This document shows positions 63,185 to 64,000 of a stretch of DNA of 64,000 nt, piece by piece; the first letter of the stretch is position 1; each line of letters opens with the position of its first letter. The translations under genes were made by a program, and so were the position numbers. Where the stretch lies: IMG/VR virus record IMGVR_UViG_3300044946_000175, positions 32,001 through 96,000 of that record; one strand, 5' to 3'. The DNA comes from a virus. Below the pieces are notes generated by a model. The model was not told the origin of the DNA and ran no database searches. It saw only the letters and a program-made list of their open reading frames with translations.

Positions 63185-64000
63185 GTGGCAAACGATACCA
63201 TAGTCCGTGCTGTTACCATCGCCGCGAGCCGACCGCTTACTGGCGATTGGGCTGACTTCAATAAAGCAATGGCAGCATGCTGGAGGTCGTCCACCAACGC
63301 GGCCAACTGGTGCATTACGGAGTTGTTCCGTCGCGACATTCCCAACGAGGCCAAGACTCCCGACGCGGTGAAGATGGGAAAGCAGAGCGACGGGCGATTT
63401 TACGCCTACGGCGAAGCCAAGAACCTGCCCTGGTTCTCCGAGTGGAGCGGTCAGAAGCAGTCGCTTAATATCGTTCTTCAGTATGCGCACAGGGAGTATC
63501 TGCGGCGTCGATTCGACGTGATGGTGCGGCACACTCAGTCCCTCTTGACCGTGCGGTATCCCTATCCGTTTCCGCTGGACGCCGATGTATGGAAATTGAG
63601 CTACAAGGCTGGCGACTTTCCCGTGGTTTCGTTCGCGCTGCCGGGACTGGGTAAAGTGGATTTGCGCTTGAAGCGTCACGGGGATTTTCGGCGGCAACTG
63701 GCCATGCTGAAGCAGATACATGCGGGCACGGCAGCAAAGGGCGAAGCGGCGGTCTACAAGAACTCAAAAGGCGATTTGTTAGTTAAGATTGTGGGGAAGT
63801 TCCCGCGCGTGGAGCGGTCGAAGGACAATCGAGTTCATGCCTGTGCGATGCACACCGATCCTGCTGCTTTATTGGTTGCCGAGATCGATGGGAGGCAACC
63901 GTGGATTCTGAACTGTGACCACTTTCGTCGTTGGCAGGCACAGCATCGAGACTTTCTACAAAGGACGCATGAGGATTTGAAGCGAGAGAAGCGAATGGAT
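63185..64000 (+). CDS. Cas12f/TnpB-like protein with degenerate RuvC-I (putative nuclease-dead), 3'-truncated
   Basis: 272 open codons to the window end: MANDTIVRAVTIAASRPL...W..STNAANW.ITEL...SLLTVRYPYPFPL...GDFPVVSFAL...LLVKIVGKFP...ACAMHTDPAALLVA; WED-REC-WED-RuvC order. Confidence 0.65.
   Translation, partial: MANDTIVRAVTIAASRPLTGDWADFNKAMAACWRSSTNAANWCITELFRRDIPNEAKTPDAVKMGKQSDGRFYAYGEAKNLPWFSEWSGQKQSLNIVLQYAHREYLRRRFDVMVRHTQSLLTVRYPYPFPLDADVWKLSYKAGDFPVVSFALPGLGKVDLRLKRHGDFRRQLAMLKQIHAGTAAKGEAAVYKNSKGDLLVKIVGKFPRVERSKDNRVHACAMHTDPAALLVAEIDGRQPWILNCDHFRRWQAQHRDFLQRTHEDLKREKRMD

Follow-up and report, generated by a model that had tools for sequence, protein, structure and literature searches.

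A truncated, apparently nuclease-dead relative of Cas12f encoded by a phage ahead of scaffold-linked CRISPR arrays, one spacer of which resembles Type II Bub operons

The window analyzed here, 64,000 nucleotides of DNA from a soil phage corresponding to C1:32001-96000 of a 119,161-bp virus record (IMG/VR IMGVR_UViG_3300044946_000175; CheckV completeness 85%), ends inside a gene for a small protein resembling the CRISPR effector Cas12f. A first-pass annotation, made from the letters of the window, had described this gene as a GTG-started open reading frame (ORF) behind an AAGGAG ribosome-binding site and its product as a Cas12f/TnpB-fold protein with an inactivated RuvC domain that might act as an RNA-guided regulator. 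The start codon was indeed located at 63185-63187 with the frame open to base 64000, and the peptides IVRAVTI, SLLTVRYPYPFPL, GDFPVVSFAL and ACAMHTDP cited in that annotation were all found in the translation. Extension of the contig, which the annotation had called for, closed the frame in the longer record 286 nt past the window end, giving an effector of 366 amino acids (aa), P0001. Features beyond the window are given below in the coordinates of the locus L002, to which 95000 is added to obtain the C1 position and 63000 to obtain the extrapolated window position (Table 1).

When the effector sequence was used alone, sequence searches gave only sub-threshold matches (NCBIfam guided_TnpB, 19 bits against a cut-off of 100; a PHROG transposase family, E 4e-3). 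A word-indexed search collected 54 relatives, and a full profile search reached 1070 representative clusters at E<=1e-3, of which 575 passed E<=1e-30, a family that has no Pfam or NCBIfam name. The profile of 148 diverse members was compared with the PDB sequences and matched OsCas12f (9nzq) over the whole length with an E-value of 5.4e-13, along with AsCas12f (about 4e-9), SpCas12f1 (2.4e-8) and the nuclease-deactivated Cas12f 9n9c (3.3e-8). The match to 9n9c was limited to profile positions 41-219, the N-terminal half, and the identity to this protein was about 14% in the structural alignment. The AlphaFold2 model of P0001 had a mean pLDDT of 93.6, and the top Foldseek matches of the model were all Cas12f proteins (AsCas12f, E 1.2e-18; dCas12f 9n9c, E 3.3e-13), followed by TnpB, Cas12k and Fanzor. 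VIA-align gave Z-scores of 22.0 for AsCas12f (318 residues aligned, root-mean-square deviation 9.9), 20.9 for OsCas12f and 18.7 for dCas12f (325 residues), and weaker scores for Cas12k (about 15), TnpB (about 13.5, range 13-14) and Cas12m 8hhm (11.5). The Cas12f/TnpB fold claimed at first pass was thus borne out by the sequence profile as well as by the structural comparison proposed along with it, in which Cas12f ranked first. From the profile and the model, P0001 is predicted to descend from Cas12f and to have retained the WED, REC and RuvC folds. In the ESM Atlas the nearest cluster was viral, and the next one consisted of 364-365-aa proteins of Bacteroidota. An N-terminal CxxC...CxxC zinc ribbon was present in 81 of 198 family members and absent from P0001.

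The state of the nuclease site was assessed by two alignments, one made by HMMER against OsCas12f and the other by hhalign against nine genuine TnpBs (collinear, 290 columns, E 1.5e-3); the set of nine was used because one TnpB by itself gave too weak a comparison. Both alignments placed the RuvC-I Asp of Cas12f/TnpB on H223, so that the His of A-M-H-T-D replaces the Asp of G-I-D-L-G, with D225 lying two residues on. A hand alignment that had put D225 on the RuvC-I Asp was dropped for this reason. The RuvC-II Glu fell on D320 in the HMMER alignment and on Y319, adjoined by D320, in the hhalign alignment, and no Glu was present there. In the alignment to OsCas12f, P0001 ended at the point after which Cas12f has its TSQ zinc finger and RuvC-III. 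Each of the 10 effector ORFs examined stopped shortly past the final RuvC strand or had a basic tail at its end, and two CxxC motifs within the last 90 residues were found in none of the 198 family proteins. The canonical D-E-D triad, whose alignment the annotation had recommended, is therefore absent (H223; D320/Y319; no RuvC-III segment), and the suspected inactivation of RuvC is supported, with the zinc finger and the RuvC-III segment gone. Among the 148 diverse members, position 225 was Asp in 88 and position 320 was Asp in 111, whereas D264, K266, R270 and R311 were retained in 145-146, indicating that constraint is relaxed at the positions expected to be catalytic. On these grounds we infer that P0001 has lost cleavage.

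Downstream of the effector gene, a 133-nt element was detected twice (L002 1285-1417 and 2357-2489; 87% identical), each copy leading into an array of 36-nt repeats. The repeats comprised 16 full copies, all on the plus strand directly 3' of the gene with a period of 70-75 nt, and occurred nowhere else in the genome. Those of array 1 were diverged, with 2-9 mismatches to the consensus, and six of array 2 were identical to it. The annotation had supposed that the guide would lie downstream or act in trans; a predicted scaffold RNA fused to a CRISPR array was found downstream, from the stop codon on, and the guide was invisible in the window because the scaffold starts at this stop codon, just past the window end. 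The search of the 3' flank that had been suggested also detected a conserved structured RNA and CRISPR repeats among the homologues. Relatives of the effector were located at nine loci in viral contigs and, with the patterns used, at none in 185,579 species genomes. In 9/9 of the related viral loci the repeats followed the 3' end of the gene immediately and shared its strand, and the gene-scaffold-array layout was retained down to 25% protein identity; these layout counts refer to the present locus and its nine relatives (10 loci).

Common to the scaffolds of all 10 loci were two hairpins, one at the 5' side and a second, variable one, as well as a CCGCTCGC core, a GGGATA-like box and ..ACGG|CCCC as the entry to the first repeat. 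RNAalifold recovered the 5' hairpin P1, with double compensatory changes in 6, 5 and 5 sequences at three pairs, together with a long-range stem that closes ahead of the first repeat. A 7-bp hairpin was kept in both scaffold copies of the present locus with a wholly different, fully compensatory stem sequence. The hairpin loop was complementary to the 3' end of its own repeat (for instance CCGCAA/UUGCGG, UCGCAA/UUGCGA, CCUGC/GCAGG and UUUGC/GCAAG), and this pairing had a cognate mean of 5.1 bp as compared to 4.06 bp for non-cognate combinations, a value reached by 10 of 20,000 permutations. A loop/repeat pseudoknot of the kind suggested by this pairing is described for Cas12 trans-activating CRISPR RNAs (tracrRNAs) in the Cas12p preprint. 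No Rfam family matched the scaffold, and no Cas1 was found in the 119-kb record. As judged from its sequence, the module is a phage-borne type V CRISPR system without adaptation genes.

A candidate target was identified for one spacer, spacer 0 of array 2, the guide nearest to its scaffold. A scan of metagenomes with an 18-mer of this spacer gave 79 loci, of which 65 matched at 21-27 and 14 at 29-36 of 40 positions; the mismatches in the 14 better loci fall at third codon positions. The site corresponds to the 3' end of a small gene overlapping the start of a ThiF-like gene. In the best match, L067 (35/39), the target genes encode proteins matching Multi_ubiq (PF14452, 1.1e-19), DUF6791 (PF20590, 5e-56) together with ThiF (PF00899, 1e-12), and DUF6527 (PF20137, 1e-26). 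Type II Bub (bacterial ubiquitination-like) operons combine BubA, a ubiquitin-like protein with a Multi_ubiq domain, the ThiF-containing E2-E1 fusion BubBD and the DUF6527 protein BubE (PMC11601596), and by the definition of that paper the L067 target is, from its predicted domains, an operon of this type. Within the L067 protospacer (2506-2541) lies the bubBD ATG, at 2534, and the guide is antisense to the coding strand. The 5' flanks of the natural Bub sites read ..AGTTG/..GGTGC. Across 30 target loci, BubA was at the site in 29, BubBD abutted it in 27, and BubE was present in 22. A codon-degenerate scan of species genomes detected the site in 16, mostly Alphaproteobacteria, along with two Planctomycetota and one genome of Methylacidiphilales (Verrucomicrobiota); the best of these matches was 33/39. 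A weak plasmid match of spacer 0 also fell on genes annotated as 'multiubiquitin domain-containing protein | ThiF family adenylyltransferase'. Spacer 0 and the bubA/bubBD overlap shared 21 identical bases in eight of the Bub loci compared, and no other spacer matched Bub loci. In L067, a divergent CapH-like helix-turn-helix (HTH) gene (9e-8) and a gene for a CapP-like M78 peptidase (1e-13), at 611-2064 on the minus strand, flank the Bub operon; the CapH/CapP regulator pair is tied to diverse defence pathways such as CBASS in the Bub preprint.

Further searches with the spacers were largely negative. The 16 spacer intervals and two array tails were not meaningfully above shuffles when compared with the phage's own genome, where the best match was 14 nt exact. 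Array 2 spacers had no match in reference phages, the spacers had none in the full records of the nine related phages or in 401 Planctomycetota genomes, and a 22-mer of spacer 0 had none in viral contigs. The 18-mers of four of the 10 array 2 spacers matched 0, 0, 1 and 5 viral contigs at chance level (19-24 of 35-38 identical). A search of 401 Alphaproteobacteria genomes yielded spacer 0 again and a match of spacer S5 (L002 2869-2906), 26/27 in the core and 28/38 overall, around the GPFPLMVF motif encoded by an alpha/beta-hydrolase gene from a single alphaproteobacterial genome (L131, about 1494-1531). The S5 match is borderline and taken as a lead only, because 401 genomes were searched. A scaffold-like 35-nt match in Alphaproteobacteria was judged to be due to chance. 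Among contigs from three soil DNA runs, short ones in two runs matched only the first spacer of array 2, with unlike flanks, which is likewise a lead only. No RNA run was listed for the locus among public sequencing runs.

Taking the observed fold, truncation, non-canonical residues, conserved gene-scaffold-array layout, scaffold covariation and spacer match as the starting point, we consider it probable that the module encodes an RNA-guided DNA binder, in which scaffold and repeat-spacer RNAs load a dead mini-Cas12f that blocks expression, with one guide aimed at the Bub E2-E1 gene. The scaffold, about 110 nt of sense-strand RNA fused to the first repeat of each array, would take the role of the tracrRNA, and the loop of its 5' hairpin would pair with the repeat 3' end as a pseudoknot. 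Repeat-spacer guides would come from the arrays, and the resulting ribonucleoprotein would bind matching DNA without cutting it and block expression. Of these guides, at least one would be directed against the place where bubA meets bubBD in a Type II Bub operon carried by the host or by a resident mobile element, so that part of the job of the module would be RNA-guided anti-defence. Binding, silencing and benefit to the phage are presumed here from the features listed above. The one target that could be identified belongs to a bacterial operon of defence type and is neither a phage promoter nor a housekeeping one. A more general proposal, that phages wield a non-cutting, programmable mini-Cas12f as natural CRISPR interference against bacterial immunity, with the array letting the phage re-aim its anti-defence, is offered tentatively, and we would not be surprised to see it fail. 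Under that proposal, since eight Bub loci share 21 identical bases with the guide, one guide could shut off the E2-E1 enzyme in many hosts or resident mobile elements. The RNA-guided regulator of TldR or dCas12f type proposed at first pass stands in part: the effector is dCas12f-like and is associated with CRISPR arrays, not a single-guide TldR, and the word regulator itself is still a conjecture.

Several observations weigh against the proposal of a silencing complex aimed at Bub. In the close subfamily of P0001, Asp occupies position 225 in 54/54 members and position 320 in 52/54, a conservation that would be odd for residues without a role and leaves room for a rearranged active site or a role in RNA processing. 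A credible target was obtained for only one of the 16 spacer intervals; its best match is 35/39, and an exact match to spacer 0 was found in no genome scanned. The target lies within the operon, not at a promoter, and the anti-phage role of Bub is itself inferred, not shown, in PMC11601596. When the spacers of the nine related arrays were compared with a 185-kb set of Bub loci, none matched at E<=0.01.

The conserved Asp residues bear on the possibility that the effector is still a nuclease, working through a rearranged site that makes up for the absent RuvC-III (D225, D320/D321, the invariant D245 or a His of the 'SHPAVS' tail) in ordinary interference against rival mobile elements. Besides positions 225 and 320, D245 was Asp in 54/54 of the close subfamily, a tail with a conserved His was present in 43 of the 198 members, and TnpB branches with rearranged sites, including a change of RuvC-III to His, may stay active (Altae-Tran et al. 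2023, PMC10691335). We nevertheless regard this explanation as unlikely, as position 225 was non-Asp in 60 and position 320 non-Asp in 37 of the 148 diverse members, the tail was missing from 155 of 198 members and is split from the gene in the phage of P0001, and the zinc finger was found in no member. In addition, the nearest natural truncated relatives, dCas12f, are described as nuclease-dead (PMC13472631). That the module is in decay and no longer serves any function is scarcely credible: the diverged repeats of array 1 and the loss of the effector tail to an insertion would fit decay, whereas the size of the family (1070 representative clusters at E<=1e-3), the strong conservation of its non-catalytic residues, the six consensus-identical repeats of array 2, the layout kept down to 25% protein identity, and the ribosome-binding site and enriched phage motif upstream of the gene all argue for maintenance.

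Two other explanations accept a guided complex and differ in what it does. The guide might act on RNA, the complex or the CRISPR RNA alone blocking bubBD translation as an antisense across the ribosome-binding region and start codon. The antisense orientation of the guide to the coding strand and the position of the L067 protospacer over the bubBD ATG agree with this; the structures of Cas12f, dCas12f, TnpB and Cas12k were, by their entry titles, solved with DNA targets, and the orientation of a single spacer is a 50:50 event, a strand bias needing further targets, which makes an RNA target very unlikely in our view. The complex might also recruit a partner, either a transcription factor as in dCas12f-sigmaE or a small accessory protein, and thereby activate or remodel its targets. 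Natural dCas12f does start transcription with sigmaE (PMC13472631), a conserved small ORF of no known family lies between effector and scaffold in 5/10 loci, and the phage encodes CsrA. However, the record yielded no match to Sigma70_r2, L007, L008, L010 and L011 lack the small ORF at this place, and activation would harm the phage since the sole known target is inside a defence-type operon; we therefore rate recruitment as highly improbable, and retain DNA binding with silencing as the preferred explanation.

The module shares features with several known systems. The dCas12f proteins are described as Bacteroidota proteins with a C-terminal truncation that are mostly array-less and act with sigmaE, a few array-linked members being mentioned as possible repressors (Hoffmann et al., Nature 2026, PMC13472631). 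P0001 resembles them (9n9c/9n9m) in its length of about 365 aa, its Cas12f fold and the loss of part of the RuvC site through truncation at the C-terminus. It differs in that its gene is on a phage with an array and a fused scaffold in 9/9 related loci, whereas dCas12f is bacterial and mostly array-less, in that no association with sigmaE was seen (no Sigma70_r2 in the record; HTH partners were outside the specific search), and in that its sequence match to 9n9c is confined to the N-terminal part noted above. Type V-F Cas12f (AsCas12f 8dzj/8j12, OsCas12f 9nzq; PMC13186708) provided the best structural and sequence matches. It likewise has a CRISPR array, with repeats of 36-37 nt, and its accessory structured RNA pairs through a loop with the repeat 3' end, a pairing that is predicted for the scaffold described here. 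In contrast, it possesses the D-E-D triad, the TNB zinc finger and RuvC-III, all three of which are missing from the P0001 family, and its tracrRNA is encoded by a separate gene whereas the scaffold here is fused in cis to the first repeat.

TldRs, some of them phage-encoded, are nuclease-dead TnpB-like repressors with a single guide (Wiegand et al.; PMC13622181). Like P0001, they are small, truncated TnpB relatives found on phages; their RuvC is dead, as predicted for P0001, and they act as RNA-guided repressors of host genes, a role that P0001 may share; however, TldR descends directly from TnpB and has one omega-type guide and no array, while P0001 is nearer to Cas12f (Z 22 vs 13-14) and has 16 spacer intervals. 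Cas12m (type V-M), an effector of plasmids and prophages, silences without cutting (review PMC11656645), and is comparable as a CRISPR-associated type V effector on a mobile element that acts by binding and transcriptional silencing in inter-element conflict. It is larger (about 600 aa) than P0001, and its structural match was weaker (Z 11.5, 8hhm). Phage-encoded CRISPR systems targeting host defence elements also exist (BMC Biol review PMC11656645). Those systems are complete and cutting, unlike the module described here, which lacks adaptation genes and whose 366-aa effector has lost the canonical nuclease site. ICP1/PLE is reportedly an example of a phage CRISPR turned against a host-borne defence locus.

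Larger phage effectors, namely Cas12p (500-700 aa, active), MvCas12m (610 aa, predicted active) and Cas12r (564 aa, active, no tracrRNA), were also considered and set aside as other families. Cas12f and V-U branches with altered sites were reported by Altae-Tran et al. 2023 (PMC10691335). No paper on a phage family of truncated Cas12f whose arrays are fused to a scaffold came up in the literature search, although the clade may be listed, for example under a V-U label, in supplementary material to PMC10691335 or PMC13472631 that lay outside it. If the proposed mechanism is correct, natural nuclease-dead Cas12f would be, beyond a bacterial transcription device, also a large phage-borne family (1070 representative clusters), and phages would have gained RNA-programmable silencing of host or rival genes, including immune operons, as a new class of anti-defence. 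P0001 would also be a very small (366 aa) natural DNA-binding effector whose guide scaffold is already defined by covariation. The spacer match would then suggest, independently if indirectly, that phages are affected by Bub operons, for which an anti-phage role has so far been drawn from genomic context.

Table 1. Features of the effector locus and its surroundings, in window coordinates unless L002 or C1 is indicated.
Feature	Position	Strand	Description
AGGCGATA box, phage-specific promoter-like motif	63155..63162	+	23 nt upstream of effector start codon
AAGGAG ribosome-binding site	63172..63177	+	7 nt before GTG; read from sequence
Effector gene, part in window	63185..64000	+	residues 1-272 of 366; WED/REC and RuvC-I region, Cas12f-fold
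Effector gene, remainder	to L002 1286 (C1 96286)	+	bridge helix, RuvC-II strand (Y319-D320-D321), last strand, stop codon
Scaffold RNA copy 1	L002 1285-1396	+	beyond window end
CRISPR array 1	L002 1397-1947	+	7 diverged 36-nt repeats and three half repeats
Remnant of 'SHPAVS' C-terminal tail, 51 aa	L002 1990-2145		between array 1 and scaffold 2
Conserved accessory ORF, 79 aa	L002 2016-2255		overlaps the 51-aa tail remnant in another frame
Terminator-like hairpin	L002 2262-2282		after the 79-aa ORF
Scaffold RNA copy 2	L002 2357-2468	+	beyond window end
CRISPR array 2	L002 2469-3203	+	11 repeats, 10 spacers
Spacer 0 of array 2	L002 2506-2544	+	matches bubA 3' end / bubBD start of Type II Bub operons
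CsrA homologue	about 59204-59353	+	PF02599, 73.7 bits; about 3.8 kb upstream of effector
AGGCGATA copies	34635, 39811, 42829, 47940, 48871, 50321, 54202, 63155	+	intergenic, C1 66-95 kb, mostly with extension

The motif AGGCGATA upstream of the effector gene occurred 9 times in the window as compared to 1.47 expected, a number reached in 0 of 100 shuffles. Eight of the nine copies were on the plus strand, and a longer consensus, AGGCGATA-Y-W-GTAA, was recognized at intergenic plus-strand sites. The copies look like one phage-specific promoter class, a function suggested by their sequence and placement. A sigma-70 promoter scan gave no score above shuffles. Among the six ORFs upstream of the effector, one encoded a 5'-3' exonuclease and five had no match, with no transposase family in any of them (Pfam, E<=0.01). 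The gene downstream of the arrays encodes the small terminase subunit and likewise has no transposase family. These neighbours, together with the enriched phage motif, agree with the domesticated appearance noted at first pass, insertion sequence ends as such having been outside the search. The CsrA mentioned there was recovered by its Pfam model, whereas the sigma-like factor was not: Sigma70_r2 had no match in the 119-kb record, a single model that would miss a divergent sigma.

The curated TnpB model NF040570 (cut-off 100 bits) gave P0001 19.1 bits (E 6.4e-4), below the cut-off. A second, canonical TnpB of 364 aa is encoded by the same phage outside the window (G000:C1:26259-27284, minus strand; L012 1447-2541, minus strand). 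It scored 178.6 bits with NF040570 and has GVDLG, ALEDL and NADLNAA motifs and a CxxC...CxxC zinc ribbon. Given these canonical motifs, a live-looking TnpB and a dead mini-Cas12f appear to coexist in one genome.

Array 1 also contained half repeats of 22-27 nt representing the 3' part of the repeat only (L002 1434-1460, 1473-1499 and 1926-1947), one of which abuts a full repeat without a spacer while another precedes a 17-nt spacer. A ACCGCTCGC box was present inside the scaffold, and an extra copy was located about 25-70 nt upstream of the scaffold start, at L002 2320-2335 and also in L003, L005, L006 and L011. This upstream copy may be a promoter or operator element.

The basic 'SHPAVS' C-terminal tail of the 43 tail-bearing homologues was traced in the present locus by tblastn, in which the tails of 13 of the 43 matched the 51-aa frame of L002. 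From this homology, scaffold 1 and array 1 were apparently inserted between the effector body and its tail. Homologues of the 79-aa ORF, which has no Pfam family, were found between effector and scaffold in L003-L006. The view that the effector gene was simply split by array 1 was dropped: the tail remnant is real, but the SHPAVS DNA also encodes IASxGL in an overlapping ORF. The tail frame was offset from the effector body in L005 and L006, so that a frameshift or overlapping genes are possible there. At L002 1990-2255, L005 6064-6453 and L006 1715-2121, a single stretch of DNA encodes both motifs, 'SHPAVS' in the frame of the tail and 'IASxGL' in that of the accessory ORF.

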